NCBI GenBank assembly: GCA_963724695.1
Contig: CAVRVW010000007.1
Span: 46,503 to 110,502 of the forward strand
Source of the DNA: an uncultured Acidobacteriota bacterium
GTDB taxonomy: Bacteria > Acidobacteriota > Vicinamibacteria > Vicinamibacterales > CAVVIG01
Direction: 5' to 3'
DNA: 64,000 nt
Each line of letters starts with the position of its first letter. Position 1 is the stretch's first letter. A program made the translations under genes and the position numbers. This document shows positions 6,180 through 61,775 of this stretch, in pieces. Under the pieces are notes generated by a model. The model was not told where the DNA came from. It ran no database searches and worked only from the letters and a program-made list of their open reading frames with translations.

Positions 6180-6898
6180 GCGTGCCAATGAACCCGCCCG
6201 CCCCGCCTGCCCCGCCTGCCCCATCTGCCCTTACCGTGAGCCACGTCAGCAAGAGCTATCCCACGGCTCGCGGTCCGCTGGCCGTGCTCGACGATGTGTC
6301 GCTGACGCTCGCCGCCGGGGACGCTGCGGCCATCATGGGACCGTCGGGAAGCGGCAAGAGCAGCCTGCTGTATCTCCTGGGCGCTCTCGAGCCGCCCTCG
6401 TCCGGCACGATCACGCTCAACGGCCAGAATCCGTTTGCGCTCGAAGGGCAGGCGCTGGCGCGATTCCGCAACGAACAGATCGGGTTCGTGTTCCAGGATC
6501 ACTGCCTCCTCCCGCAGCTGAGCGTGCTCGAGAACGTGCTGCTGCCGACGCTCGTCGCCAGGGGCGGCGCCGACGACACCGCCAGAGCGAAGGCGCTCGT
6601 CGAGCAGGTCGGGTTGACCGATCGCCTGGATCACCGGCCTGCGGCGCTCTCGGGCGGCGAGCGGCAGCGGGCCGCGATTGCACGCGCGCTTATCCGCCGG
6701 CCGCGGCTCCTGCTCTGCGACGAGCCAACGGGGAACCTCGACCGCGCGTCGGCCGAGAACGTCGCCGCAGCGCTGCTCGATCTTCACGGCCGGCAGCAGA
6801 CCATCCTGATCATCGTCACGCACAGCGCACAGCTCGCGGAGAAGTGCCCGATTCGGTTCGAGCTCGGCGACAGGAGGCTTCGCCGTGCTGGTGCTTAG
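6176..6898 (+). CDS. ABC transporter ATP-binding protein (LolD/MacB/YbbA-like)
   Basis: Walker A GPSGSGKSS, signature LSGGERQRAAIARAL and Walker B LLLCDEPT. The TTG start overlaps the GT stop by 4 nt. Confidence 0.9.
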   Translation: MSVPMNPPAPPAPPAPSALTVSHVSKSYPTARGPLAVLDDVSLTLAAGDAAAIMGPSGSGKSSLLYLLGALEPPSSGTITLNGQNPFALEGQALARFRNEQIGFVFQDHCLLPQLSVLENVLLPTLVARGGADDTARAKALVEQVGLTDRLDHRPAALSGGERQRAAIARALIRRPRLLLCDEPTGNLDRASAENVAAALLDLHGRQQTILIIVTHSAQLAEKCPIRFELGDRRLRRAGA

Positions 6899-15635: not shown

Positions 15636-16313
15636 CTATGACACCCGATAGACCAGGAACATCTGCCGCGGCAGAAAATCGTGTTGCGCGGCCAGCGTGA
15701 AGCCAGCCTTCGTGAGCTCGCCTGTAATCTCTTCGGGCGTGAAGCGGAACTCGACGGGCGGGCCCTCGGGCGCGTCCTTGCGGAAGTCGATGATGGCGAG
15801 CCGCGCGCCAGGGTTCATCGACTTTCGCAGCTCCCAGAAGTACGCGCGACGGTCCGGGATGTGGTGGTAAGTGTCGACCACGAGCACCAGGTCCACGGCC
15901 TCTGGCAGGTTGGTGCGGTCGGCTCCCGCCTGCACGACGACGACGTTCTTGAGCCCTTCCTTGGCAGCGCGCTGGCGGACGTAGTCGACCATCGACTTCT
16001 CGATGTCGACGGCGAACACCTTCGGCGTCGCTGAAGACTTCGCCAGGCGCACCGTGAAGTAGCCGGTGCCGGCGCCGATGTCCGCCACGCTCTGGCCCGG
16101 TCGGAGACCGAGCGCGTCGATCACACGCGCGGGCATCTGCCACGCGTCGCGGGCCGGATCGTCGAACTGCTTGGCGTACTTCTCCGCGTCCTCGAAGCGA
16201 TGGTCCATGTGCCCGCCCTGAGCAGCCGTAGGGGCGCCACCGTGCTGGTGCTGAGCGACGAGCACGGCGCCGGCGCCGATCAGTCCGACCGCCACACAGA
16301 TGATTGTCTTCAT
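15636..16313 (-). CDS. class I SAM-dependent methyltransferase with N-terminal signal/anchor
   Basis: SAM-binding motif VADIGAGTGYFTVRLA. The N-terminus is MKTIICVAVGLIGAGAVLVA. Confidence 0.85.
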   Translation of the reverse strand: MKTIICVAVGLIGAGAVLVAQHQHGGAPTAAQGGHMDHRFEDAEKYAKQFDDPARDAWQMPARVIDALGLRPGQSVADIGAGTGYFTVRLAKSSATPKVFAVDIEKSMVDYVRQRAAKEGLKNVVVVQAGADRTNLPEAVDLVLVVDTYHHIPDRRAYFWELRKSMNPGARLAIIDFRKDAPEGPPVEFRFTPEEITGELTKAGFTLAAQHDFLPRQMFLVYRVS

Positions 16314-16334
16314 TCTGCCCCCCCTAGGAGGTCA

Positions 16335-16461
16335 CTGTACTCCAGGCTCAGGGCTCAGGGCTCAGGGCTCAGGGCTCAGGGCTCAGGCTTTCGTGTTTTC
16401 GTGTTTTCGTGGCGTCTTCGTCGTGTCTTCGTGTCTTCGTGGCCAATCTTCTTCGTGCCCT
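16335..16461. repeat. compound array: ggctcag x6 followed by cttcgtg words
   Basis: caggctcagggctcagggctcagggctcagggctcagggctcagg, then ctttcgtgttttcgtgttttcgtggcgtcttcgtcgtgtcttcgtgtcttcgtggcc. Confidence 0.85.
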
Positions 16462-17301
16462 CTATCCGACGATGCAGCGCATCCCTCGAACGACCTCGCC
16501 GATCGCCGGGTCGCCCTCGATGCGCACAGCGGGCTGCTGACCGCTACGGTCGAACCCCTTCGTGAACAAACGCCACGCATCGTCGTCGGCGAGGGTGGCC
16601 GACGCGCCTGGGGCGGCGCTGACGTCAACGACGAGCTGCCAGCGACCGGCCTCGCGATAAAGGAACCACGCGCCGCCGGCGGGGCCGGAGATCTCGACCT
16701 TCCAGAGGGCCCCATCGTCGGCCGGGGTAGAGCGGCTGGCGTGCGGCAGCGCGCGCATGAAGGTATCGAGGACCGGATGCAGAAACTCGCGTGTCGTCAG
16801 CGGCTCGGCGCCGACGGCATCGCGAATCTGCTGCTGGTGGTGCCAGCGCTCGGTGAACTCGCGTGCGACGTCGAACCAGACGAGCGACCGCGACTCGCCC
16901 GCCCAGGACACGGCGAACGCCGCGTCGCCATGCGGGTCCAGGCGACGGAAGTACTCGTGGAGCCTGGCGGTCGTGACTTCCATGAGATCGATTAGGTGCC
17001 GGGGGCTCGTCCCCCGGTAAAACTCCACGCCCGCCCGGTTCGCCAGGTTGACAAACGCACCGACCTTCGCCTCGGTGCCGAGATCGGGCGGCGGGCCTGG
17101 TGGCGCATGTCGATCGCGATCGAATGACAGTCTCCGCGTCGCGGTATCGAGAAGGTGCCCGGCGACATCCTTGACCGACCATCCGACGCAGACCGTCGGC
17201 CGGCTCCAGTCGGCCGGCGTCAGCCCTCTGAGAAGCGCGAGCAGGTGGTTGTCCAGCGAGGGGAACAGGTCGGCGACGAGGATGGGAAGGGGCTGACGCA
17301 C
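16462..17301 (-). CDS. DinB / maleylpyruvate-isomerase N-terminal-domain family protein
   Basis: 279-aa ORF. The N-terminus LLALLRGLTPADWSRPTVCVGWSVKDVAGHLLD is typical of the mycothiol-dependent maleylpyruvate isomerase/DinB fold. Confidence 0.7.
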   Translation of the reverse strand: MRQPLPILVADLFPSLDNHLLALLRGLTPADWSRPTVCVGWSVKDVAGHLLDTATRRLSFDRDRHAPPGPPPDLGTEAKVGAFVNLANRAGVEFYRGTSPRHLIDLMEVTTARLHEYFRRLDPHGDAAFAVSWAGESRSLVWFDVAREFTERWHHQQQIRDAVGAEPLTTREFLHPVLDTFMRALPHASRSTPADDGALWKVEISGPAGGAWFLYREAGRWQLVVDVSAAPGASATLADDDAWRLFTKGFDRSGQQPAVRIEGDPAIGEVVRGMRCIVG

Positions 17302-17407: not shown

Positions 17408-20400
17408 CAGAATCTGACGCGCACTCCGAGTTGCAGTTGCCGCGGGTCGCCGTAGCCGCTCTGGACGGTGCCGTCGAAGTTGAACACGAGGTTCGTGACC
17501 TCCGGGCGCTTGATGTTCGTGCTGTTGGTCAGGTTGAACACCTCGAAGATCGGCTGGATCGTCATGCCGCCCGCGGTGAAGTCCTTCGAGATCGCGCAGA
17601 TCCCATGTGAAGAACTCGTTGTCCTTCCTGAGCGTGTTGCGCTTGATGATCGAGCCGTCGGGCTGGATGCGGTCCTGCGGCGTGTTGCCGATCGACTTCG
17701 GCTGCGCCGACCGTCCGGAGATGCGCGATGTTGAAGTCGAATGCCCTTGCTGCACGGTCAGGAACCACGCGTTGAACCGGTGCCGCTGGTCGCGATCCGA
17801 GTAGTTGTATTCGGGCTCGAGCGTGTCGGCCCGTGGCGTAGCGGAACGTGAACGGATCGCGCTCGTTGTCGTCGTCCGACATGTCGCGCGACAGCGTGTA
17901 GTTGACCTGGAACTGGTAGTTCTGCGAGTAGCGTCTTGTTCAGGCCGAACGTCACGCCGTCGTACTCGGCTCCGGCCGAGCTCTCGACCACCGTCAGCGT
18001 CGCCGATGCCGTTGGTGCCGTTCGGCGCCGAGGCCCGTGCACCACGGCGATCCGAACACCGGGTCGTTGCGGTTGATGAAGCGGGTGATGAAGTCCGTGT
18101 TCGAGTGCGTGTAGGTGACTGACGCCGACAGGTTGGACGCCAGCTCGCGCTCGTACGCGAACGTCGTCGAGCACGTGCGCGGGTTCTGGAAGTTCTTGTC
18201 GAACACGAACACGTCCGGGTGGTTCGGGTTGGAGATCTCCGACTGCGGAATCAGGTTCGGCCAGGTCGGCGGCGTGAGGCCGAACCCGTTGAAGGTGCTG
18301 TCGCGGTACAGCGTCTGGCCGCGGCTGCCGTTGGTCGAGCGCGAGCTGGCCAGGTTCAGCCCCGGAATGCGCGCGTAGAACAGGCCCGTGCTGAAGCGCA
18401 GCACCTGCTTGCCGTCGCCGGCCGGATCCCACGAGATGCCCAGGCGCGGCTGGAACATCTTCATGTCCGACGGGATCGTGCCGTCGGAGGGGAACCCGGG
18501 CTTGCCGATGAAGCGGCGCGTAGAACACCTCGTTGGGCGGCGTGATCGGGTCCGGCTGGATCTGCGCTTCCCAGCGCAGGCCGTAGCTGACCGTCAGGCT
18601 GCGCGTTGGGCTGCCACTTGTCCTGGATGAACAGCGACGGCTCGAGCTGCGGGATGTCCTGCGTGCCGGCCTCCTCGACCGACAGGCCGCCGACGCCGGC
18701 CTGCTGCAGGAACAGCAGCAGCGGACCGGTGATCGATGGTGCCCGCCGGGCACGCGCCCGTCGTGCTGGTGGTCCCGTTCGAGCACTCGACGTACTTCGG
18801 CCCGAACTGCGCGTAGTTGAGGAAGCCGTCGCGTGCTGCCGAAGACGTAGCGGCCGTTGGCGAACCCGATGAAGGTCTGCGACCGAGTTCACGCGGTTGA
18901 ACTCGCCGCCGACCTTGATCGTGTGGCTGCCCTTGATGAGCGAGAAGTTGTTCGTGATCTGGAAGCGCGTGTCGTAGTACTCGACCGGCAGGAAGAACGG
19001 CATGCCGAAGCGGTAGCTGCTCCCGAAGTCGAAGGCGGTGTCCGGGAACGGCCGCGTCTGGCCGTTGACGTTCGGGCCCGTCGTAGGGCCGCGGCCGGTC
19101 TTCGCGCGCGAACTGGAAGCGGAACTCGTTGAGCTTGTTGCTCGAGATGCGTCGATAGCAGCGATCCCGACACGCGCGTTCGAGAAGTCGCGCTCGATGC
19201 CGTTGGCGCTGCGGCCCCACGAGTCGACGTCGAACGTGCCGTTCTCCTGCCGCTCCACGTGTAGTTGTAGCGGACGGTGAACAGGTTCGACGGGTTCAGC
19301 TGGTAGTCGATCTTGCCGAGGAACACGCGCGCGTCGTTGGTGCGGTCGATCGAGCCCGTTCTCGTCGGGGCTGCCGAGCGCCGCGAAGAGGTCGACGACG
19401 CGCTGTTCGATGCGCGCGGGATCGAGCTGCTTGGTCTGGTCGAACTGCTGCTGGTCGTAGGCGAAGCAGGAAGAACATCTTGTCCCGCTTGATCGGCCCG
19501 CCGAAGCGTCGCGCCGAACTGCTGCTGATCGAACGGGAACTTCTCGCCCGTCCGAGTTCTCCGACGACAGGCGCGTCGTCCTTGAAGAAGAAGGTGCGCC
19601 GACCCGGCCGGGCGTGTTCGTGCCCGACTTGGTCACGACGTTGACGAAGCCCGGCGCCGCTCCGGCCGAACTCCGCGGCCGCGCCGTCGGCGACGACGAC
19701 CATTTCCTGGATCGCGTCCTGGTTGAACGTGAACGCCGGCCGCTGGCCGCCGCGCTGCTCGCCGAAGAACGGGTTGTTGAAGTCGGCGCCGTCCACCGAG
19801 ATGTTGTTGTTGATGCCCTTCTGCCCGTTGATGCTGATCTCGTCGCCGTCGGGCCCCTGCACGATGGTGACGCCGGGCGTGAGCTGCATGAAGCTCAGGA
19901 AGTTGCGCCCGTTGTTCGGCAGGTCCGCGATCGACTCCTCGTTGATCTGCGTCGGCTCTCGGCCCGCGTGGTCTCGACGATCGGCGAGTCGGCGGTGACC
20001 GCGCACTTCCTGCGACACCGACGACAGGCGCAGCGTGATCGGCAGGTTCAGCCGTCTGACCCACGCCGAGCTGGATGCCCTCCTGGACGTATCGTGCCGA
20101 ACCCGCTGAGCGTGACCGTCAGCACGTAGTCGCCGAGCGGCAGCAGCAGGCCGCGGAAGCGGCCGTCGGCGTCGGTGGCCAGCTCGCGCGTGAAGTTGGT
20201 GCCCGTGATTGACCAGCGTCACGGTCGCGCCGGGCAAGCGTCCGCCCGTTTCGTCCGACACGGTGCCTTCGATGACGCCCGTCGTCGCCTGCGACTGGGC
20301 GAAGCCCGTCGCGGCGAACGCCGTTGTGACAATGAACATCAACACGAGTCTGGCAATTGCTCGACGCAACAGGCACCTCCCCGGAGGCAAATTGGAAACT

Positions 20401-29945: not shown

Positions 29946-32108
29946 CTGCACGACGGGTCGGCCGGCGCGGTAGAGCGCCAACCGGGCGCGAATCTCTCCG
30001 ACAAGGACCGGCGCTGAGCCGCTGGCGAGCTTTTCTGCGGCTTCGGCTGACGCCACGGCCTCCTGAAACCGTCCGGCGGACGCATACGCCGCGGCGAGCG
30101 AGTCGAGCACCGAAGCGTCCTTTCTTCCAGACAGTTCCGCGGCCCGGGATGCGAGAGCAATCGCCTCATCAGGATTCCTGGCGGCGGCATCGGGATGCGT
30201 GGCCAGCAGCCACGAGAGCTGCGCCATGGCATCGGTCCAGTCGGGACGCGCGACGAGCGCGCTCCTCAACTGCGCGATCGCCTCCGAATACCGATGAAGC
30301 CCGGCGAGCACACGGGCGAGGTTGTAGCGGGCTTCCGGGAACGACGGGCTGATCTGCACCGCGCGCTCGAGGGGCGCGACCGCGTCGGCGAGCCGGCCCG
30401 CGGCAATCTCGGCCACGCCGAGGTTGTAGTGAGGCGAGAGCTCCGTCGGGTCGAGTCGAGTGGCCTCGCGCAAGTGAACGATTGCCTCGTCGACACGTCC
30501 CTGGCTCAGCACGATCTCGCCCACACGGGCGTGCGCGCGTGCGTGCGACGGGTCGAGCCTGAGCGCCTCCCGATACTCCGCCGTCGCCCCGCCCACGTCC
30601 CCTGACGCCTGAAGCGCCGAACCGAGGTTGAACCGCGCTGCCGCGGACCGCGGTTCGAGCCGCACGACCTGCGCGAAGTGCGCGGCCGCCTTCTGCGGCT
30701 GACCGGTCCGGATGTAGAGGACGGCGGCGTCGTTCCTGATCGCCGCGTAGTCCGGGCGCACGGCGATCTGCGTCTCGAGGCCGACGATGGATTCGGCGGT
30801 CATCTTGCGGTCGGTTTCGCCGAAGAGCCGCACGCGATCGGCGTCCGTGCGCGCGAGCAGCTGCACCCAGACGTCGCCCATTTCGTCAGACGATCGGAAC
30901 CCCCACACGACGCGCCTGGGCGGCATGTCCGGGTTGTGCGGGTTGTCGGCGGAGTTGTCGTAGACGTACTCGAGGTGGAGGGCTGTGCCCGCGGGCAGCC
31001 AGAAGGGCTGCGCGTATCGGTACTGGTCCTGCCATTTGAAGTCCCACTGTCGAACGAGGATCAGCCACCGTCTGCTCCCGTCGGGAAGGTCCGCCCATGC
31101 GCGAACCTCACGCGCGCGCAGGTGCGCGTGCGGCTGAACGGCTTGCACTTCGGCGTCCACCGGCAGGGTGAACGAGTCGGAAACGACGTAGGCCTTATCG
31201 CCAGGCGGGATGTCGATGCTCTGGCGGCCCAGCCGCAGCATGACCGGCGTGCGCGTCGGCGGTTCGTTCGTGAAGAAGAGACCGATCGACGGGCGGATCC
31301 GTTCCGGCTTTCCGGTGGCCTGCAGATGCAGTTGCACGAGCAGCGACGAGCCGTTCTCGAGGCGCCAGGAAAGTCCGGCAGGGGCCAGCGGCGGCGCCTG
31401 GCCAGGCGTCCAGCCCAGGAAGTGCCCGTCGGGGAACATCGCCGAGTTCGGGATGAGGCCCGAGTACCCCGCCAGGGGATCCTCATCGTCCAGCCGCCGG
31501 GAGGCTGCCGTCCGGTCCACGAAGATGTTGGCGTGGTGCACGTTGGTGTTGCCCGGCAGGAACTCGAGGCCGCGGACGTACCGCGTGGCAGCCCCCGGCG
31601 CAGCGGGAACATCGACGACGAAGTTGCGGTAGAGATCGGTTTCGCCGGAGGCGGGCACGGTGTATTCGGGAAGCGTGAGCACGAGGTCAGGCTGACCGAC
31701 CTGCCAGCCTGCCGACCAGGTGGGCGCCGGCGGCAGGCGCGAGCGATCGCCTTCGCGCGCCCCGGAGGTGACCCAGCGCTCGATGATCGAGATCTCCTCG
31801 TCGGTGAGGCGGCGCTCGCCGGCGAACTCGCCGTAGCCGGGCTCGGGCCGCCAGGGCGGCATGTAGCGGCTCTTCGTCACGGCGGCGATCTGCCGCGCGC
31901 GAGCGGAGGCTTCCGCGTACGTCACGAGGCTGAAGGGCGCCGATCCGCCGGGGCGGTGGCAGCCGGCGCAGCGCGCGAAGACGATCGGCGCGACGTCGTG
32001 GGAGAAGGTCGATCTCAAGCGGCGTCTGCGCCCCCAACAAGTGCCGGCCAGAACGAGCAGCGAGAAGCGCCAGGCGGCCGGCCATTCGCCAACTGTAGCG
32101 CGGGCCAC
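29934..32108 (-). CDS. PHM/DBH-like copper type II monooxygenase domain protein with N-terminal CxxCH block and C-terminal TPR repeats
   Basis: The track ORF 29934..33152 is trimmed to GTG 32108 (VARATVGEWPAAWRFSLLVLAGTCWG). N-terminal block APIVFARCAGCHRPGGSAPFSL...MPPW. His/Met pattern VHHANIF, LHLQ, QPHAHLRA and SSDEMGDVW, spaced like the CuH/CuM sites of peptidylglycine alpha-hydroxylating monooxygenase. About 8 TPR-like repeats follow. The exact start is uncertain. Confidence 0.7.
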   Translation of the reverse strand: MARATVGEWPAAWRFSLLVLAGTCWGRRRRLRSTFSHDVAPIVFARCAGCHRPGGSAPFSLVTYAEASARARQIAAVTKSRYMPPWRPEPGYGEFAGERRLTDEEISIIERWVTSGAREGDRSRLPPAPTWSAGWQVGQPDLVLTLPEYTVPASGETDLYRNFVVDVPAAPGAATRYVRGLEFLPGNTNVHHANIFVDRTAASRRLDDEDPLAGYSGLIPNSAMFPDGHFLGWTPGQAPPLAPAGLSWRLENGSSLLVQLHLQATGKPERIRPSIGLFFTNEPPTRTPVMLRLGRQSIDIPPGDKAYVVSDSFTLPVDAEVQAVQPHAHLRAREVRAWADLPDGSRRWLILVRQWDFKWQDQYRYAQPFWLPAGTALHLEYVYDNSADNPHNPDMPPRRVVWGFRSSDEMGDVWVQLLARTDADRVRLFGETDRKMTAESIVGLETQIAVRPDYAAIRNDAAVLYIRTGQPQKAAAHFAQVVRLEPRSAAARFNLGSALQASGDVGGATAEYREALRLDPSHARAHARVGEIVLSQGRVDEAIVHLREATRLDPTELSPHYNLGVAEIAAGRLADAVAPLERAVQISPSFPEARYNLARVLAGLHRYSEAIAQLRSALVARPDWTDAMAQLSWLLATHPDAAARNPDEAIALASRAAELSGRKDASVLDSLAAAYASAGRFQEAVASAEAAEKLASGSAPVLVGEIRARLALYRAGRPVVQSVP

Positions 32109-54047: not shown

Positions 54048-54121
54048 TCTCAGCCGAAGCCTGGAGCCTGGAGTCTGACGCCTGGAGCCCCAGAAGCCCG
54101 GAGGCTGAAGGCCGAAGCCTA
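54048..54121. repeat. array/hairpin of gaagcc/ggagcc words
   Basis: tctcagccgaagcctggagcctggagtctgacgcctggagccccagaagcccggaggctgaaggccgaagcc. Same family as 61515-61775. Confidence 0.75.
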
Positions 54122-54915
54122 TTATCGTTCTTCGACGAGAATCTTGCCGGTCAGGAGCGAGCTCAGCGTGTCGTTCAGCTCCTGCTCGTTGCCCGCGGCC
54201 AGCACGAGGCCGCCGGCGTCACGGACGCTGTCGAACCGGCTCGCCGCGATGTCGAACGCGACGAAGTACACCGACGGGCGCTCTTCGGGAGGCCGTCTCG
54301 CCAGCGCGGCCATGACGTCCTCGGGCTCGTGACCGTCCGTGTTCTCGCCGTCGGTGACGACGAGCAGGTGCCGCTTCGTCAGGCCCGAGCGGTCGAGGAC
54401 GCGCTTGCCCACGACCACGGCCTCGCCGATCGGCGTGCCGCCGCGCGCCCGCAGCCCGGCCAGGGCCGTTCGGCCTGCCGCGGGTCCGCCGGCGACAAGC
54501 CGATGATCTCGCGTGTGTCGTCGCCGCTCGAGTTGCTGAACTCGTAGAGGCCGACGAGCACCGGCTCCTCCGGATGCGCGCTGGCGTAGGTCGCAAACTG
54601 CTTGATCAGGGCGAGGGCCGACCGCTTGGCGATCTCGATCTTGGGCGGGCCGCCCTTCTGCACCGGATCGGCCATGCTGCCCGACACGTCCATCAGGACC
54701 AGCGCGGCGATGCCGTCCTTGGTCGCGGGGAGCACTTCCGACGGCGTGAGGTCGTCGGCGATGCGCTCGATGCGGCGCTCGGATCTGGAGCGCCCGGCCT
54801 CGGCGTCGGCCGCCGCCCGCTCGGCCGGGCTGGGTGCGAACTGGGCAATGAAGACCGCCCAGACCACCACCGCTGCGAGAGCGACCACGATGCGCGCCGA
54901 ACGGCTGATGGCCAC
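54122..54915 (-). CDS. membrane-anchored VWA domain protein, one frame break near 54400-54440
   Basis: TM segment IVVALAAVVVWAVFIAQF and MIDAS motif ALVLMDVSGSM (piece 54379..55269). The C-terminal piece 54122..54418 reads HLLVVTDGENTDGHEP...VYFVAFDIAASRF. The GTG at 54915 is a tentative start. Confidence 0.7.
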
Positions 54916-54918
54916 GCT

Positions 54919-56387
54919 ACGCGACTTGACCCCGTCGCGCTGGGCGATGCGCCGGGCCACGAGCGCGCCGGAGTTCAGCGCGCCCTCCATGTAGCCGACG
55001 AAGGCGTAGCAGGTGTGCTCGCCGGCGAAGTGCAGGTCGCGCCTCCTCGGGCCACAGCAGCGGGCCGACCGTCGTGACCTGCCCGGGCGCCGGGAACGAG
55101 TACGACGCGCGCGTCCACGCGTCGGACGGCCAGTCCATGAAGCGATCGCTGACGAAGCTCGCCCGATGCCCGGGTACACCTTGCCGAGCTCGGGCAGGTA
55201 GTTCTCGACCGCGGCGCCGCCGGCCACTCGCGGCACGTGTCGGCGGCGGCGCCGCCCGAGAAGGCGCACATCGCGCGCCGGGGCCTTTCTGGCCGTCGGT
55301 CTCGTGCCAGGTCAGTTGATCGGGCCGTCGGTCAGCAGTCGGGCGCCAGCTCGGCGCGCCGCCAGAACCGTTGCTGCAGCGCGATGAGGAACTTGACGTT
55401 GCTGCCCATCTGCGGCGTCAGCGCGCGGCGGCAGCGGCGGCTCGATCCCGATCTTGTTCCAGATCGACGGCGGCATGGCGAGGATCACGTCGTCGCCTCG
55501 AGCGTCTCGCCGGACGCGAGCGTGACGCGACGCCCGCGGCGCCGTGGTCGATGCCTTCGACGGTGTCGAGGCGCACGCGCGCGCGGGCCGATCGCCGCCA
55601 GCAGCTTCCGCGCCAGCGTCTGGTTGCCCCGGGCGCAGCGGTAGACCTCGCTGTCGGTCCAGTACTTCTCGACGCCGCCGCCCTTCACCATCGCCAGGTT
55701 GCCGAGATAGCTCTGCCACTCGCTGCGGACGCCGTTGTCGCCGTCATCATCGCGTCGATGCGCCTGCTTGCAGCGGCGAGGCGTTCAGCGTCGGGATCCA
55801 CGACGCGAGCGTCCGCTCGTCGAGCGCCTCGGCGTTCGGCGCGTCCACGGCCGGTCCGCGTCGGCCACCTTGGCCGCGTCGGCGTTCATCTGGTTGACGG
55901 CCTCGTCCATCTCCTCCCAGAGCGCTTCGGCCTCCTCCTCGGTCGAGGCGCTTGCCGCCGAGCATCATCGGGAAGTCGAAGTCCTCTTCCTCGGTGACGT
56001 CGAGGAACGTCAGCTTGAAGCGATCGGCGTAGGCGACCCAGGTCGGATGGTTCGAGCCGACCAGCTCGCCGCCGCCTTCGACGTGCTTGCCGGGGACGAA
56101 GTCGCGGAAGGTGATGACGCGGCCGCCGACGCGGTTGCGCGCCTCGAGCACCGTCACGTCGTAGCCGGCGCTCTTCAGCTCGAAGGCGGCGGCCAGGCCG
56201 GAGAAGCCGGCGCCGACGACGATGACGCGCTTGCCGGCTTGGCCTGCGCGAAGGACCCCGAGCGCTGAGGAGCAGGCCGGCGGACGCGGCGAGCGTCGCC
56301 TGCAGCATCTCGCGGCGGGTGAGATCCGCGTGCGTCGTGGCGCTCGCCGAACGCGCTCGATGCGTCGCCGCGTAGAACAGCGGCCAC
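54919..56387 (-). pseudogene. flavin-containing amine oxidase (monoamine oxidase family) with Tat-like signal, heavily frame-disrupted; 3' boundary unresolved
   Basis: AGGAGG lies 4 nt upstream of GTG 56387. Recognisable parts are [19 protein letters not shown], the dinucleotide fold [39 protein letters not shown], and the C-terminal LHFAGEHTCYAFVGYMEGALNSGALVARRI. There is no in-frame stop before the VWA gene in the frame as written. Confidence 0.65.
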
Positions 56388-56434: not shown

Positions 56435-58106
56435 CTACTCGATCGTGAACCACTGCACTTCGACGCGCCGGTTCTGGTCCGAGTCCGGCGACACCGGCTC
56501 TTCCCAGCCGCGGCCGACGACCTCGATGCGGGCGGCGTCGACGCTTGTAGCGCTCGATCGAGCAGCTGCCGGATCTCGGCCGCGCGCTTCTTGCTCAGCT
56601 CCATCGCCTTGAGCGCCTGTGTGCGCACGAACGCCTCGCCGCCCTTCTTGCGGAACTCCTCGACCAGCGCGTTGTCGACGTGGCCGCGCAGCAGGATCGT
56701 CGAGCCCGGGCTCACCTGCAGCAGCTGCTTGATCGCGTCGAGGTTCCTGCAGGTTCGCCTGGTTCGCGAGGTCGAGCGTCGCCGAGTTCGGCTCGAACAG
56801 GAAGCGGATGTCCTTGCTGAGCAGCGGATCGCCCTCGAGCGACCCGGTGCCGCCGGTGCGGATCGGCGCGATCGCGACCTTCTGATCCTTGAACTGCCCG
56901 CCCTTCGAGCGCCTTGAGCGCCGCCAGGTCGACGAAGCGGTCGGCGTCGGGCGGATCCTTGATCAGGTCGGAGCCGTAGGCGAGCACCGCCGACTGGTAG
57001 ATGCCGCCGAAGCTGCCGGCGGCGTCGATCGCGCCGGAGAAGAACGCGAGGTTCTCCGGCAGGTTCGACAGGTGCACCTTGGCGAGCTCGGCCTCGCGCG
57101 TCGTCGCGCGTCCACTTGAAGGCCTTGCCGACGGTGTCGAGGTGCGCGTCGCGGTTGTCGCGCACCATGCGGTTGCCCTCGAGCAGGCCCTGCACGAGGC
57201 CCGCGACGATCTTCGGGTTCTGCTCGGCGAAGCCGCGGTGCACCACCAGGACGTCGGCGACGACGAGCAGGTTCGGTTGGTGGTGAGCACGTGCGCCTTG
57301 CCGCCGCTCTCCTCGACGACCTCGGAGACCTTCGGCTCCCACGTCACGCACCCGGCGAGCTGGTTCGCGCCCGACTTGATGTCGCGCAGGAACAGCTCGC
57401 CGGCCGCGACGCCGTCCTCGGTGTAGACCAGGTTGATGCGGTCGGGCTCGGCGTGGCGTCGAGGCTGCCGAGCATGTTGACCGCCAGGCCGGCTTCCTGC
57501 GCGAGGTAGCGGAGGAAGAAGTCGGCCTCGGTGAACTGCGCGGTGGCGACCATCTTGCCCTTGAGGTCGTTGATCTTCTTGATGTCCGCGCGGACGACGA
57601 GGCCGTCGGCGCCGCGCGAGTAGCCGATCTGCACCGGCACCACGGCGTGGAACTGGCGGCCGTAGGCGGCGAGCACGTCGACGGTCGTCACCGAGGCGGC
57701 GATCTTGCCCTGGTTCAGGTCGCGACCAGCTCTCGTCCTCGCTGATGGTCAGCTTCACCTTGAAGCCGCCGTTCTTGAAGAAGACCGAGTTCTCGGTCGG
57801 CTCGAGGCCGCCGTTGGCGGCGATGAGCCCGGCGTAGCCGGCGTACTCGCTGATCTCGATCGGGACGATGTTGTCCTTCAGCGTGAACGGCGCCGGCGGC
57901 GCCAGCCGCGGCACTTCGACCTTGAAGTCGACGACCGCCGGCGCCTCGCCGGCGTCCCGCCGCTCTGCCGCCGCGGGATCGCCGGCCGCGCCTCCGCCGC
58001 CCCGGGCGATCCTGACCAGGTAGGCGCCGAGCGCGACGCAGCCCGCGCGATGAGGGCCGATGGAAGCGAGCTTTCCGACCGCGGTGATGCGGCGCTTCGA
58101 GCGCAT
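56435..58106 (-). pseudogene. membrane-anchored NMT1/THI5-like substrate-binding domain fused to a C-terminal OmpA-like domain, frame-disrupted
   Basis: MRSKRRITAVGKLASIG start (ATG 58106). SBP-like blocks are [62 protein letters not shown] and [16 protein letters not shown]. The OmpA-like end is [48 protein letters not shown]...[12 protein letters not shown]-stop at 56435. Confidence 0.65.
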
Positions 58107-58842
58107 CAGTCGTCCTGGGCCGATCTGCTTCTCGGTCGCCGGCGCGCTCGCTCGCCGACGCCGGCGCCTGCACGCCCTGGCTGGCGAGGAACTCGGCCAG
58201 CGCGTTCTGCTCGAGCGCCTTGCGCTCGCTTTCCTTCTCCTGGATCTCGTCCATGTCGACCATGTCCTTGGCGACGCGGGCCTTGCCGGCCGAGACCTCG
58301 TAGCGCTTCTGCGAGGACGCCTTCGACGTCCTTCAGCGTGTCGCCGAGATCGCCGACCTTGAAGGCGGTGTTGCCGAGGGCGGCGGCGGCTTCCGCCTGC
58401 GCCTCCTTGATCTGCACCTGCGAGAGCTGCTTCTCGAGCCGGCGGACCTTGTCCTCGAACTCGCGCTGGACGACCTTGGCCTGGCGCAGGTTGGTCTGGT
58501 AGGCCTCCTCGGTCTCCTTCAGCTCCTCGGTGTCGGTCGTCAGGTCGGCCTTCAGCTCCTGCAGCTCGCGCGCGAGCGTGCCGGCGAGCTCCATGTTGCC
58601 GGCGCGTGGTTGGCGAGGATGCGGCGCTCGAGATCCTGGGCCCTGGCCGTCTTGCTCTTGACCTGACCCTTGAGGCGCTCGGCGACGCCGGCCATGCGGG
58701 CCAGCGCCATGTTGTATTGCGCCATCTTCGCGCGGAAGTCGTCGCGGGCGGCCGCCATGAGGGCTTCAGGGTTGGCTTCCTCGATGCCGCTGATGAACAG
58801 GCTGAGGAAGCCGCGGACCAGCCGTCCGATGCGTGCAAACAT
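58106..58842 (-). pseudogene. PspA/IM30 (ESCRT-III superfamily) coiled-coil protein, frame-disrupted
   Basis: GGAG lies 8 nt upstream of ATG 58842. MFARIGRLVRGFLSLFISGIEEANPEALMAAARDDFRAKMAQYNMALARMAGVAERLKGQV (58552..58842) continues in 58106..58594 (ELAGTLARELQELKADLTTDTEELKETEEAYQTNLRQAKVVQREFEDKVRRLEKQLSQVQIKEAQAEAAAALG) and 57715..58263 (VDMDEIQEKESERKALEQNALAEFL). Confidence 0.7.
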
Positions 58843-58906
58843 GCGAAGTCTCCGTCGAAGGTGAGCTCGAATTCGCGAGTGTAGCCGCCAGGGAGAACGT
58901 CACGCC

Positions 58907-60626
58907 TCAAACGAACCGCCGCAGCTCGGTGATCCGCGTCTCGATCTGCTCCGGGGTCAGGTCGCGGAACCGCGGCGGCAGGAAGCGCTGTCGGTGCACT
59001 CCTTGACCGCCACGAGGTCCATGTATTCGAGCTTGCGCGTGTGCGCGCTCGGCCGCACTTCGCCGAGCACGCCGGCCGAGGATGTCGCGCAGCGGCCGGC
59101 TTCGGCTCGGGCGCCAGCTCCCACACGCGGAGGGCGCGCACCAGCACGCCCTCGATCTCGTTGCTGCCGAGGCCCTGCGACGGGTCGAGCGCCGGCAGGT
59201 CGTCGTCCGTCAGCGGGAACTTCAGCTTGCGGGCGATGGCCCGGAACAGCGCCCGCATCTCGTCGGGCGTCTCCGGCGCGAAGAGCGGGATGTGGACGTC
59301 GAGGCGGCCCTGGCGCTTCAGGTCGACCTCGAGGAGGTCGGGCCGTGACGTGGCGAAGACCCAGAGAATCCGACCGCGGTTGCGCGTGTCCGACATCTCC
59401 TTCGCGAGCATCGCGTAGACGCGGCCGGAGAGGCCCCCGTCCGTGTCGCCGCCCTCGCGCTTGCCGGCGGCCTGGTCGGCTTCGTCGACGAAGACCAGCA
59501 CCTGTCCGATAGCTTTCAGGACGGAAAAGATCTTCTCGAGGTTCGATTCGGTGGCGCCGACCCACCGATCGCGGAAGTTCTTGAAGACGACGCACGGGAT
59601 GCCGAGCTCGCCGGCCCAGCACTGCACCAGGTAGGTCTTGCCGGTGCCGATGCGCCCGGCGACGAGATACCCCATCGGCAGCGCGTGCAGCGCGCCCTTC
59701 TCGAGCAGCTTCTGGTCCTCCCGCAGCCACGCCTTGACGGCGTCGCTGCCGGCCATGTCGTCGAGCGTCAGCTTCGACTCGATGAAGTCGAGCAGCCCCT
59801 GGCACTCCGACTCGATCAGGTCCTTCTTGATCTTCGACACCCAGTCGGCGGTGAGGCGCTGGCCGCTCCGCGTCGCCATCGTCACCAGGCGGCGGGCGCC
59901 GACGCGGCTCAGGCCGGTGAGGCGCTGGCCGAGCGTCGCAGCGGCAGGTCGCTGCGCTGCGAGGTCCGGGATCGGCGGCGGCCGCGAGCGACTCGACGTA
60001 GGCGCCATCTCGGCCTCGTCCGGCAGCGGCAGCTTGATCTCGGCCGCGTGCGGGTTCTCGACCACCAGCGCGTTCAGGTCGTGCAGGCCTTCGGCGATCA
60101 GCACGGTGATGATGTTGGCCTGCAGGATCGCCGGATCGTTGGCCCAGCCGAGCACCTTGACGACGTTGGCGGCGAACGGGCCGCCGAGCTGCGCGGCGTC
60201 GCCGCGCGGCACGACGAACTCGGCGAAGTCGACGATGACGGCGACCTTGCGCGGCGTCGCCGCGCCGCGCCGGCCGCTCGGCCGACCGCCGCCAGGTTCA
60301 GCGTCCGCAGCAGGTAGCGATCGATCAGCTCCAGCGCCACGCCCGGCTCGCGCGTCGAGCTGATCGGGTTGGCGTCGCCGAGCGCCTGCTGCAGCCAGGC
60401 GCCCCAGTCGTCGGCGCCGCGCGTCGCGCGCACGCCGCGGCTGCGGTCGTAGTGCAGCACGGTGTCGTAGGCGCGCGAACATCGCCTCGTCGAGGAACGC
60501 CTTCAGCGAGAGCTGGCGATCGCCGTGCGGGATGACGTCGAAGACGTTGCCGTGGAGCAGGAACTGGGCGACCGATCCGGATCGGAACAGGTCGCGCATC
60601 TTGGAGGCCCAGGCGGGGAGCGGCAT
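58907..60626 (-). pseudogene. classical-clade AAA+ ATPase with a distinct N-terminal domain, frame-disrupted
   Basis: Walker A GYLVAGRIGTGKTYLV, Walker B VLVFVDEADQ, second region of homology ATSRPDLLEVDLKRQGRLD. The N-terminus is MPLPAWASKMRDLFRSGSVAQFLLHGNVFDV. Pieces lie in 56712..60626, 60098..60460 and 58957..59805. The reconstructed end is FLPPRFRDLTPEQIETRITELRRFV-stop at 58907. Confidence 0.75.
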
Positions 60627-60645
60627 GTCGGCGTCGGCGTGTCCG

Positions 60646-61507
60646 TCAGTTCAGCTCGCCGGGCGCGCGTCTGGCGCGGACGCAGCGGCGGCGGCTCGGA
60701 AATCAGGTCGTCCATGGCGCCGATCGTCTTCTGCTGATCGGCGATCCACTCGCCGGTCGTGCCGAGCGTGGCGCTGATCTCGTCGATCCGCTGCGACAGG
60801 TGCTCGGGATCGGTCGAGAGCGCGGCCTGCTCGCGGATCAGCTCGACCTGCTCCTCGATGCGGGTCAGCTCCGCGTCGAGGAACGCGAGCTTCTGCGGCC
60901 TCGCCGCGCCGCGCGACGCGCTGCTCGAGGAGGTCGGCCTGGCTCGAGGCTGCGGCGCAGATCGTCGCCGACCGACGGGTCGGCCAGCCGCCGCCTCAAC
61001 TCGGCGAGCCGCTGCTCGAGGCTGGGGCCCCGCAGGCTAGTATCGGCATCTTCGACCACCCTCACCACGGCTTGCCGCGTGACGAGCAACCTCAGGTACA
61101 TCCATAACAGACGACCCAGGCCCTCGTCGTGTTCCCGCAGACCGTGCGGCACGGAGCCGCCCTGCGCAAGTTGATCGAGCACGGTCTGGCACCGCGTGGA
61201 CAGCGTCTGGTAGCGCCGGCGTTCCCGATCGCCGAGGCGTGCGACGAGGCCGTCAATTTCTCGCGTCATCCCGATCGGATTCGCTCGCATCCGCCGCGTC
61301 GACCACGCGCTGAAACCGCTGGTTCGTCGCGAGCACCGCCAGGTAGCCGAGCTCGAGCCCCGCGCCGAGCACCCAGAAGCCGGGGTTGGCCACGCCGAGC
61401 AGCGCAAACGCGCCGAGCCCCACCCAGTTCGGCGGCACGAACATGCCGATCGGCCGCGCGCTGAAGGCGGCTCGCACGTAGTCGAAAAAGCCGTGAGGCT
61501 TGGGCAT
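60646..61507 (-). pseudogene. membrane protein (two hydrophobic helices) with long C-terminal coiled coil, first gene of the PspA/AAA+ operon, frame-disrupted
   Basis: MPKPHGFFDYVRAAFSARPIGMFVPPNWVGLGAFALLGVANPGFWVLGAGLELGYLAVLATNQRF (61253..61507), then REIDGLVARLGDRERRRYQTLSTRCQTVLDQL...LEQRLAELRRRLADPS (60865..61521), then a further helical segment. The stop TGA lies 19 nt before the AAA+ ATG. Confidence 0.55.
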
Positions 61508-61514
61508 CGGGTTG

Positions 61515-61775
61515 GGGGCAATTGTACTGGCTCTGGGCTCCGGGCTTCAGGCTCCAGGGCCTGCGGGCTCGGGCTTCTGGCTACGGGCTCAGGGCTTACG
61601 GCTCAACACCTCACTAAGTGTTGACGGAGTCTGGAAGCTCGCCGCAGAAGATCTCGGCAGACGGAGTACCAGAGCCGGCGAATGGTAATTGCCTGGAGGC
61701 TAGAGGCTAGAGGCTGGAGGCTAGAGCCTGAAGGCCGAAGCCCCTGAAGCCCGAAGCCTGGAGCCCGAAGCCCGT
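61515..61775. repeat. large hairpin of gggctc/gaagcc words enclosing a ~90-nt unique core
   Basis: ggctctgggctccgggcttcaggctccagggcctgcgggctcgggcttctggctacgggctcagggcttacggctc ... ggaggctagaggctagaggctggaggctagagcctgaaggccgaagcccctgaagcccgaagcctggagcccgaagccc. Confidence 0.8.
61658..61672 (-). promoter_or_regulatory. sigma54-type -24/-12 promoter-like element upstream of the PspA/AAA+ operon
   Basis: The minus strand reads TGGTACtccgtCTGC, with GG and GC at the canonical spacing of TGGCACG-N4-TTGC. It sits in the unique core of the 61515-61775 hairpin, about 150 nt upstream of ATG 61507. A competing sigma70-like TACAAT lies at 61521-61526 (minus strand), 13 nt from the ATG. Confidence 0.25.

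Follow-up and report, generated by a model that had tools for sequence, protein, structure and literature searches.

A reduced and re-ordered member of the PspA/AAA+ envelope modules in an uncultured Acidobacteriota bacterium, a candidate for the ATP-dependent remodelling of PspA polymers

Ravi et al. 2024 (mSystems, PMC11237479) described operons in which PspA is encoded together with a protein that combines an inactive and a classical AAA domain, a membrane-anchored protein assigned to "Snf7", and a fusion of a periplasmic binding domain with OmpA (PBPB+OmpA), accompanied by ATP-binding cassette (ABC) components (examples are AEY64321.1 and OGG56892.1). The inactive state of the N-terminal AAA copy was already stated in that work, which also proposed ATP-dependent membrane remodelling as the role of PspA/AAA+ operons. 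According to a 2025 review (PMC7619361), a Vps4-like ATPase appears to be absent in bacteria, and Makarova et al. 2024 (PMC10936438) found systems of Vps4 with ESCRT-III to be confined to archaea and eukaryotes; literature on Ycf46 held nothing relevant. How bacterial PspA/Vipp1 polymers are dismantled is an open question. Here we describe a locus from an uncultured Acidobacteriota bacterium, located within a stretch of 64,000 nucleotides of contig CAVRVW010000007.1 (the window), in which four consecutive genes encode a membrane-hairpin coiled-coil protein (TMCC), an AAA+ ATPase, PspA, and a solute-binding protein fused to OmpA (SBP-OmpA). The locus is a new member, reduced and re-ordered, of a kind that is known from comparative genomics alone. 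The association of PspA with AAA+ ATPases is not itself new: the original prediction made for this DNA had described it as already noted in comparative surveys, and it is indeed on record (PMC11237479). What is added here is the distinction of three gene-order types, the co-divergence of the partners, sequence support for an inactive first AAA domain, conserved tail motifs, and a negative result for the relationship between TMCC and Snf7.

Sequence comparison establishes the identities of the genes, an active-looking translocase domain, a TMCC coiled coil that is predicted to face the cytoplasm, a putatively periplasmic partner with ligand-binding and peptidoglycan-binding domains, and the synteny and co-divergence of the set. 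We read the locus as a reduced representative of an envelope module that is conserved in bacteria, in which PspA would be remodelled at the expense of ATP, TMCC would provide the anchor and SBP-OmpA the coupling, and in which the frame breaks that run through the genes would be assembly errors; taken as a whole, this reading seems to us about evenly balanced between right and wrong. The module would thus be a concrete, testable candidate for a PspA-linked AAA+ unfoldase.

The four genes occupy positions 56435-61507 of the window on the minus strand, as originally predicted; they were recovered by three-frame translation, by comparison with an intact relative (L001, ENA contig_33268), which served as the reference for the window genes, and by frameshift-aware protein-to-DNA alignment. 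The last of these took the place of plain tblastn, which merged frames in this high-GC sequence with its few stop codons. The TMCC gene (61507..60646, minus strand), read from stitched frames, is 71% identical to its L001 orthologue. It is followed on the same strand by the gene for a tandem AAA+ ATPase of ~575 residues (60626..58907; 93% identical to L001/P0006), by that for a PspA/IM30 protein of ~243 residues (58842..58106; 93% identical to the L001 orthologue), and by that for the SBP-OmpA fusion of ~555 residues (58106..56435; 81% identical). In the protein analyses, intact orthologues stood in for the frame-broken products of the window.

The four-gene arrangement is not due to chance. 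Two conserved ATPase peptides, searched against one genome for each GTDB species, were found in 163 species, and the best 80 loci were read; they belong to Acidobacteriota (mostly Vicinamibacterales), Gemmatimonadota and Planctomycetota, with the addition of one short contig labelled Burkholderiales. The order TMCC, AAA+, PspA, SBP-OmpA is constant in every one of these loci that is long enough to judge. The original prediction had named three outcomes that would speak against it: an AAA+ domain of an unrelated clade, a PspA that fails its profiles, and a lack of synteny in related genomes. None of them was found, and the gene order proved to be conserved across three phyla. In intact relatives the start of a gene lies close to the stop of the one before it or overlaps with it; in one of them (L083) six genes follow each other with overlapping stops and starts.

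Three types of gene order can be distinguished. Type 1, to which the window belongs, consists of the four genes, joined in Acidobacteriota by a VWA-domain gene and only in Vicinamibacterales-like genomes by an amine-oxidase gene. Type 2, seen in some Acidobacteriota and in Planctomycetota, has an extra gene for a ~220-residue coiled-coil protein between AAA+ and PspA; its SBP-OmpA is only 26-29% identical to that of type 1, and genes for an ABC permease and ATPase adjoin the cluster. Type 3 was reached with a profile of distant ATPase relatives, for which eight neighbourhoods were read. In six of the eight the order is PspA, SBP-OmpA, permease, ABC ATPase, TMCC, AAA+, preceded in some by a coiled-coil gene. 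The PspA, TMCC and SBP-OmpA of type 3 are all 24-30% identical to those of the window type; the ATPase and its partners have, therefore, diverged together, and this co-divergence is the strongest available evidence that the proteins of the module work as a unit.

Two observations on the wider family stand beside these types. A gene for a protein of ~217-220 residues with no Pfam match occurs in type-2 and type-3 modules (L064 9738-10400; L005, L006, L014 and others; L088 1449-2102; L089 1242-1904) and is absent from the window; in type 2 its product has an amphipathic-looking N-terminal segment, MGLIDSLINFGGKLG, followed by a coiled coil, and hhalign relates it only weakly to TMCC (E 0.0045, probability 8%). 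In L001, L021, L064, L074 and other loci, comparison across Acidobacteriota, Gemmatimonadota and Planctomycetota gives identities of 73-80% for PspA and 65-70% for the ATPase. Such identity is far above expectation for vertical descent and suggests that the module moves horizontally.

The C-terminal half of the ATPase carries a Walker A motif (GRIGTGKT), an aromatic pore loop (RWVG), a Walker B motif (VFVDEAD) and sensor-1 (ATSRPD), which together with the second region of homology makes up the segment ATSRPDLLEVDLKRQGRLD; the arginine fingers lie in KRQGRLD, and a conserved C-terminal extension follows the active domain. In alignments, the catalytic and pore-loop residues are invariant throughout the family, down to ~30% identity. 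The stitched window product matches the Pfam AAA model (PF00004) at 1e-21. In a PDB search the closest sequences were those of Cdc48/p97 D2 (best E 3e-35), and the best 60 matches comprised Cdc48/p97, VAT, NVL, AFG2, Rix7 and FtsH; Vps4 was not among the matches listed. Against NCBIfam, the active domain scored 63 bits with FtsH, 62 with CDC48, 49 with PAN and 32.5 with CdvC. Because all of these scores lie far below the family cut-offs (650 bits in the case of CdvC), we assign the ATPase, on its sequence, to a family of its own within the classical AAA clade. The prediction of a classical-clade AAA+ protein with Walker A and B motifs and a second region of homology is thereby confirmed. Its description as Vps4-like does not hold in the sense of family membership: neither the window product nor P0006 has an MIT domain in Pfam or NCBIfam, the window ATPase has no Vps4_C match in Pfam, its N-terminal half is an inactive AAA domain, CdvC is outscored by FtsH, CDC48 and PAN, and the best PDB match is Cdc48/p97 D2. 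The family comprises 752 representative clusters at E <= 1e-30; it thus spans hundreds of sequence clusters, and the four-gene form is found in at least three phyla. Some relatives (P0254, P0258, P0274 and P0280) are longer, at ~820-856 residues, and have an extra N-terminal region of ~250 residues before the inactive AAA domain.

The N-terminal half was originally singled out as an unusual domain with the sequence FLLHGNVFDV. The domain and this sequence are present; the label "unusual" gives way to that of a degenerate AAA domain. FLLHGNVFD stands in the place of Walker A and VIVDFAE in that of Walker B, and because it has neither the lysine of Walker A nor the glutamate of Walker B, this half is an inactive, D1-like AAA domain. 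A profile comparison of the N-terminal with the C-terminal half (hhalign, 47 diverse members) gave a probability of 73% and an E value of 3e-5 over 134 columns, placing VAVIIDFAE on the Walker B strand, ITVLIAE on the sensor-1 strand, and IKLPLPD on VHIPLFAP. With a narrow alignment (65-95% identity) the same comparison found nothing, and the N-terminal 285 residues had no sequence match in the PDB, searched with a profile of the domain, or in Pfam. A CDC48-type N domain (double-psi barrel) was not matched in Pfam or NCBIfam; the chain opens with the degenerate AAA domain.

The second partner was originally predicted to be a PspA/IM30-type protein, and matches to both PspA/IM30 and Vipp1 agree with this. 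The stitched product matches PF04012 (PspA_IM30) with 28 bits and an E value of 1.7e-6 over profile positions 3-210 of 220, the score falling below the cut-off of 33.9. All 14 sampled members of its family match the same model (best 3.4e-11), and the orthologues in L083 and L086-L090 carry precomputed PF04012 matches. The family profile aligns from its first residue to residues 1-163 of Synechocystis Vipp1 (8qfv, 8qhv and 7o3w; E ~1e-5), a span that runs from alpha0 to alpha3, and the N-terminal amphipathic helix alpha0 is MFARIGRLVRGFLSLFISGIEEANPE. Membership of the window protein in PspA/IM30, and hence in the ESCRT-III superfamily, is thus supported by profile evidence. E. coli PspA had no significant match to the narrow PspA profile. 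Matches to tetratricopeptide repeats, which appeared when a single PspA was searched against the PDB with phmmer, were spurious and were discarded; the family profile was needed instead. At the C-terminus, the proteins of this PspA subfamily end in an invariant K-E/Q-I-G-P after a variable Ala/Pro-rich linker, and the distant type-3 proteins end in K-H/T/Q-L-G-P/K or K-T-M/L; the E. coli PspA sequence has no such K-x-[ILM]-G-P tail. The PspA subfamily is 73-80% identical between phyla, which suggests either a recent spread of the module or a very strong constraint.

TMCC has ~285-300 residues. An amphipathic helix lies at its N-terminus, and two helices form a membrane hairpin that contains an invariant Glu. 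The basic residues on either side of the hairpin suggest that both termini are cytoplasmic. Its AlphaFold2 model (predicted local distance difference test, pLDDT, 73) is all-helical: the hairpin is followed by a coiled coil of ~230 residues with a proline-rich break and by a disordered tail. This acidic, proline-containing C-terminal tail is conserved (GAMDDLISEPPPL), with the motif G-A-M-D-D-L-I-S-E-P-P-P-L, and three type-3 proteins out of five (L086, L087 and L090) still show it in the form D-[DG]-L-[IL]...P-[PS]-I-L. The gene lies directly upstream of the AAA+ gene in all judged type-1 and type-2 loci, and in the distant systems homologues of 24-30% identity hold the same position. PMC11237479 assigned the protein at this position to "divergent Snf7"; with the tools applied we did not reproduce this assignment. 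TMCC did not match Snf7 or PspA in Pfam even at E values up to 10, hhalign against the PspA family of the operon gave a probability of 0.3-0.6% with both narrow and wider profiles, and the comparison with E. coli PspA was negative. The family profile matched no PDB sequence, a Foldseek search of the model against the PDB returned generic coiled coils only (best E 0.34), and none of the 1663 homologues has a Pfam domain.

The fourth protein was predicted to join an NMT1-like binding domain to an OmpA-like domain, and the stitched product does match OmpA (PF00691) at 7e-12 (46 bits, cut-off 27.2 bits) and NMT1 at 8e-5 in Pfam. It is laid out as an N-terminal membrane anchor, a type-2 periplasmic binding domain and a C-terminal OmpA-like peptidoglycan-binding domain. 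In NCBIfam, the binding domain matches SsuA_fam at 67 bits and the OmpA part matches the OmpA-type models of YiaD, MotB and TssL; the type-2 orthologue additionally matches Phosphonate-bd and OpuAC. Neither the window locus nor any other type-1 locus contains a cognate ABC permease or ATPase. Because the type-1 cluster has no cognate transporter and the protein appears to be anchored at both ends, its architecture argues for sensing or tethering rather than for the shuttling of a solute.

ATP-driven remodelling of PspA assemblies is the best-supported mechanism for the module, and we infer it from gene linkage. PspA would assemble on the stressed inner membrane by means of its amphipathic helix alpha0, and TMCC would anchor or nucleate the complex at the membrane. 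The hexameric ATPase would engage conserved C-terminal tails and thread subunits through its pore, by which the polymer would be remodelled or recycled; for PspA the candidate is the K-x-[ILM]-G-P tail, for TMCC the acidic D-D-L-I..P-P-P-L. The ATPase would then be a functional analogue of Vps4, not a member of its family. SBP-OmpA would link this machinery with the cell wall and with a solute signal in the periplasm, and its sequence is consistent with an OmpA tether and an inner-membrane anchor.

Several points weigh against this interpretation. Both the proposal that the ATPase acts on PspA and the direction of that action come from the linkage of the genes, and the proposed tail motifs are pattern observations. 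The ATPase has no MIT domain and is nearer to Cdc48 and FtsH than to Vps4 and CdvC, and the tools used here detected no ESCRT-III homology in TMCC. For the ATPase, the AlphaFold2 model, built from a shallow alignment, is poor (pLDDT 57); a Foldseek search with this model matched p97 D1D2 over its full length (>600 columns, E 4e-10), which lends weak support to the tandem arrangement. In two of the eight distant neighbourhoods, those of Treponema and Myxococcota, no PspA was found within 6 kb of the ATPase relative, so the family is not obligately linked to PspA. In E. coli, the relationship between PspA and an AAA+ protein (PspF) runs the opposite way, with PspA inhibiting the ATPase (PMC7619361). 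A bolder version of the proposal is that bacteria possess a genuine machine for remodelling ESCRT-III, whose origin from a Cdc48-like tandem AAA+ protein was independent of Vps4. In it the ATPase would recognise the tail of PspA, resembling a MIT-interacting motif (MIM), and/or that of TMCC and thread subunits, and PspA polymers would be recycled at places determined by a wall-tethered periplasmic sensor. We put this version forward tentatively, as a possibility that is more doubtful than probable. If the ATPase does remodel PspA, ATP-driven turnover of ESCRT-III would be either older than archaea or convergently invented, and if the machine is indeed an independent one, the statement that bacteria lack an ATPase that disassembles ESCRT-III would be overturned.

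The main rival has the polarity of PspF. Here PspA, released under stress, would inhibit the ATPase or serve as its adaptor, and the ATPase would have as its substrate TMCC or other inner-membrane proteins, extracted or unfolded in the manner of Cdc48, Msp1 or FtsH. We regard this as rather unlikely, even though the active domain is nearest to Cdc48/p97 D2 and FtsH, some members of the ATPase family occur without PspA, and TMCC, with a conserved C-terminal tail of its own, is always encoded immediately upstream of the ATPase, often by a coding sequence that overlaps or nearly overlaps with it. Neither a protease nor a downstream effector is part of the module, the co-divergence with the ATPase is as tight for PspA as for TMCC, and the precedent of PspA and PspF (PMC7619361) is an analogy only, PspF belonging to a different, NtrC-type AAA+ clade. 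Alternatively, transport could be at the centre: an ABC system would take up or sense a solute in the periplasm, for example an osmoprotectant, a sulfonate or a phosphonate, and PspA, TMCC and the ATPase would be accessory factors in the assembly or protection of the transporter. The genes for a permease and an ABC ATPase beside SBP-OmpA in most distant systems and in type-2 loci fit this picture, as do the matches of the binding domain to NMT1, SsuA, phosphonate-binding and OpuAC models and the presence of a ProX solute-binding gene in some archaeal ESCRT loci (PMC10936438), a possible parallel to the binding protein here. On the other hand, the window subtype of Vicinamibacterales and Gemmatimonadota lacks the permease and ABC ATPase and yet keeps the other four genes highly conserved, so transport is dispensable for the core, and a binding domain that is fused to OmpA and anchored in the membrane is immobile, as befits a sensor or a tether more than a shuttle; the probability that we give to this explanation is low. 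That the locus is an anti-phage system related to Iet is barely credible. Its ATPase does match the AAA+ proteins IetA/IteA, weakly (31-35 bits) and in the generic AAA domain only, for which reason the assignment was rejected; these scores are under those of FtsH and CDC48 and far under the family cut-off of 510 bits, there is no IetS-like protease partner, the other genes have no PADLOC match beyond a marginal one to TerY/VWA, and the conserved linkage to envelope proteins on the chromosome does not resemble a defence island.

The remaining alternative concerns the state of the genes rather than their function, namely that in this organism the operon is a decaying pseudogene cluster and its frame breaks are real. 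Every gene of the operon is indeed broken, as originally reported; frameshift-aware alignment located at least four breaks in the TMCC gene (61258, 60942, 60896 and 60658), at least seven in the AAA+ gene (60473, 60267, a cluster at 60003-59939, 59096, 59077 and 58988), three in the PspA gene (58604, 58312 and 58152) and seven in the SBP-OmpA gene (57722, 57444, 57274, 57090, 56903, 56746 and 56558). The PspA gene has one further extra base near 58113, and its stop is lost as assembled. These several breaks in each gene speak for decay, as does the last 8 kb block of the window, which has the highest density of coding-phase switches (26). Yet the breaks are single-base indels, the type made by long-read consensus errors, and they lie within coding sequence that elsewhere is 93% identical to the intact L001 orthologues of AAA+ and PspA over all frame segments; the correctly framed segments of these two genes have no in-frame stops. 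The ratio of nonsynonymous to synonymous substitution rates (dN/dS) relative to L001 is 0.19 for both genes, an over-estimate in that some mis-framed codons remain. Phase switches are raised across the window as well (16 per 8 kb, compared with 5.9 in L001), and the neighbouring gene for a TonB receptor likewise shows raised switching. Because the breaks occur window-wide and the genes are under purifying selection, consensus errors of the assembly are far more likely than gene decay, which we consider very improbable. Since the sequence needs polishing, this locus adds little beyond its intact relatives. The density of phase switches is uneven, at 8-9 per 8 kb in the regions 1-16 kb and 24-32 kb of the window and 16-26 elsewhere. 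The indel error rate of the assembly therefore varies along the contig, which may be due to effects of coverage or strain mixture.

Upstream, the operon is flanked by the gene for a TonB-dependent receptor, and downstream by those for a trehalose phosphatase and an alpha-amylase-family protein. Between the last of the four core genes and this downstream flank lie two more minus-strand genes, a Tat-signal amine oxidase and a VWA protein, both of which had been predicted from the sequence and were recovered by translation and tblastn. The flavin amine oxidase with a twin-arginine (Tat) signal (54910..56383, minus strand) is frame-broken and was traced by tblastn with its L001 orthologue, which matches PF01593 at 1e-53; the gene is present only in loci of the Vicinamibacterales-like subtype. 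The membrane-anchored VWA-domain protein (54122..54909, minus strand), also frame-broken, is encoded by the last gene of the cluster. It has the DxSxS metal-ion-dependent adhesion site motif (LMDVSGSM), its orthologues match VWA and VWA_2, and its gene accompanies the module in Acidobacteriota and Planctomycetota as well as in a single distant system (L087). As assembled, the frame of the amine oxidase reads through without a stop into the VWA gene (54909-54930), with an open reading frame of 296 residues at 54379-55269; in L083 the amine-oxidase and VWA genes share an overlap of 4 nt. The read-through is probably another indel artefact and not a fusion. The L001 reference contig seems to contain at least one frame error too, because its VWA gene is split into two overlapping open reading frames of 173 and 120 residues (16034-16886), whereas in L083 it is a single gene of 256 residues.

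The intergenic region upstream of the operon (61526..61775) holds a long imperfect inverted repeat made of tiled 7-nt units (GGCTTCG/GGCTTCA/GGCTCCA), with a core of ~140 nt and arms of 44-49 nt that are 73-80% complementary. The unit pattern has eight matches against 0.17 expected, one of them downstream of the VWA gene at 54104 (54104-54119); a further site in the window is 30601-30616. A comparable tiled element built of different units (CCAACTT/CCCAACT) lies between the PspA and SBP genes of L001 (12603-12740). The element of the window could be a terminator or an element of the repetitive extragenic palindrome (REP) type that separates the operon from the TonB-receptor gene, and tiled inverted repeats of this kind may be REP-like or terminator elements of these Acidobacteriota. 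No sigma-54 promoter was found near the operon; the single match in the window with one mismatch is far away, at 6248, and is no more than expected by chance. Consensus scans for sigma-70 promoters and terminators gave nothing above the shuffled expectation. In L001, a gene for a sigma-54 enhancer-binding protein (Sigma54_activat and HTH_8; 17694-19253), which recalls PspF, is located ~1.5 kb downstream of the module; the window has the trehalose-phosphatase and alpha-amylase-family genes in this position instead.

Among known systems, the closest are the operons of Ravi et al., which have in common with the window PspA, an ATPase of two AAA domains with an inactive N-terminal copy, a membrane coiled coil directly upstream of the ATPase, and the fusion of a solute-binding protein with OmpA. 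The gene order of these operons (PspA, SBP-OmpA, permease, ABC ATPase, TM protein, AAA) recurs exactly in L086-L090. The window differs from it in its order of TMCC, AAA+, PspA and SBP-OmpA, in the lack of the ABC permease and ATPase, and in the addition of the Tat amine oxidase and the VWA protein. With Cdc48/p97/VAT the window ATPase shares the best PDB sequence matches (3e-35 to D2) and two AAA modules in one chain; it differs in that D1 has lost both Walker A and Walker B, that no double-psi-barrel N domain was detected, that the chain has only ~580 residues, and that it ends in a distinct conserved C-terminal extension. E. coli PspA-PspF resembles the module in the genetic coupling of PspA to an AAA+ ATPase, but PspF is a PspA-inhibited sigma-54 activator of the NtrC type with a DNA-binding domain, whereas the window ATPase is of the classical clade and has no helix-turn-helix. 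As in the CdvB/CdvC ESCRT system, a polymer-former of the ESCRT-III superfamily is encoded beside a classical-clade AAA+ translocase with an intact pore loop, and a short conserved C-terminal motif follows a flexible linker, in the position of the MIM. Unlike Vps4/CdvC, the window ATPase has no MIT domain, Vps4 beta-domain or Vps4_C and consists of tandem AAA domains of which the first is inactive. In contrast to the archaeal and eukaryotic ESCRT systems, the partner is PspA and not a member of the Snf7 branch, and periplasmic and peptidoglycan-binding components are added; a wall-tethered solute-binding partner would give such a machine a means of sensing the envelope for which eukaryotic ESCRT has no equivalent.

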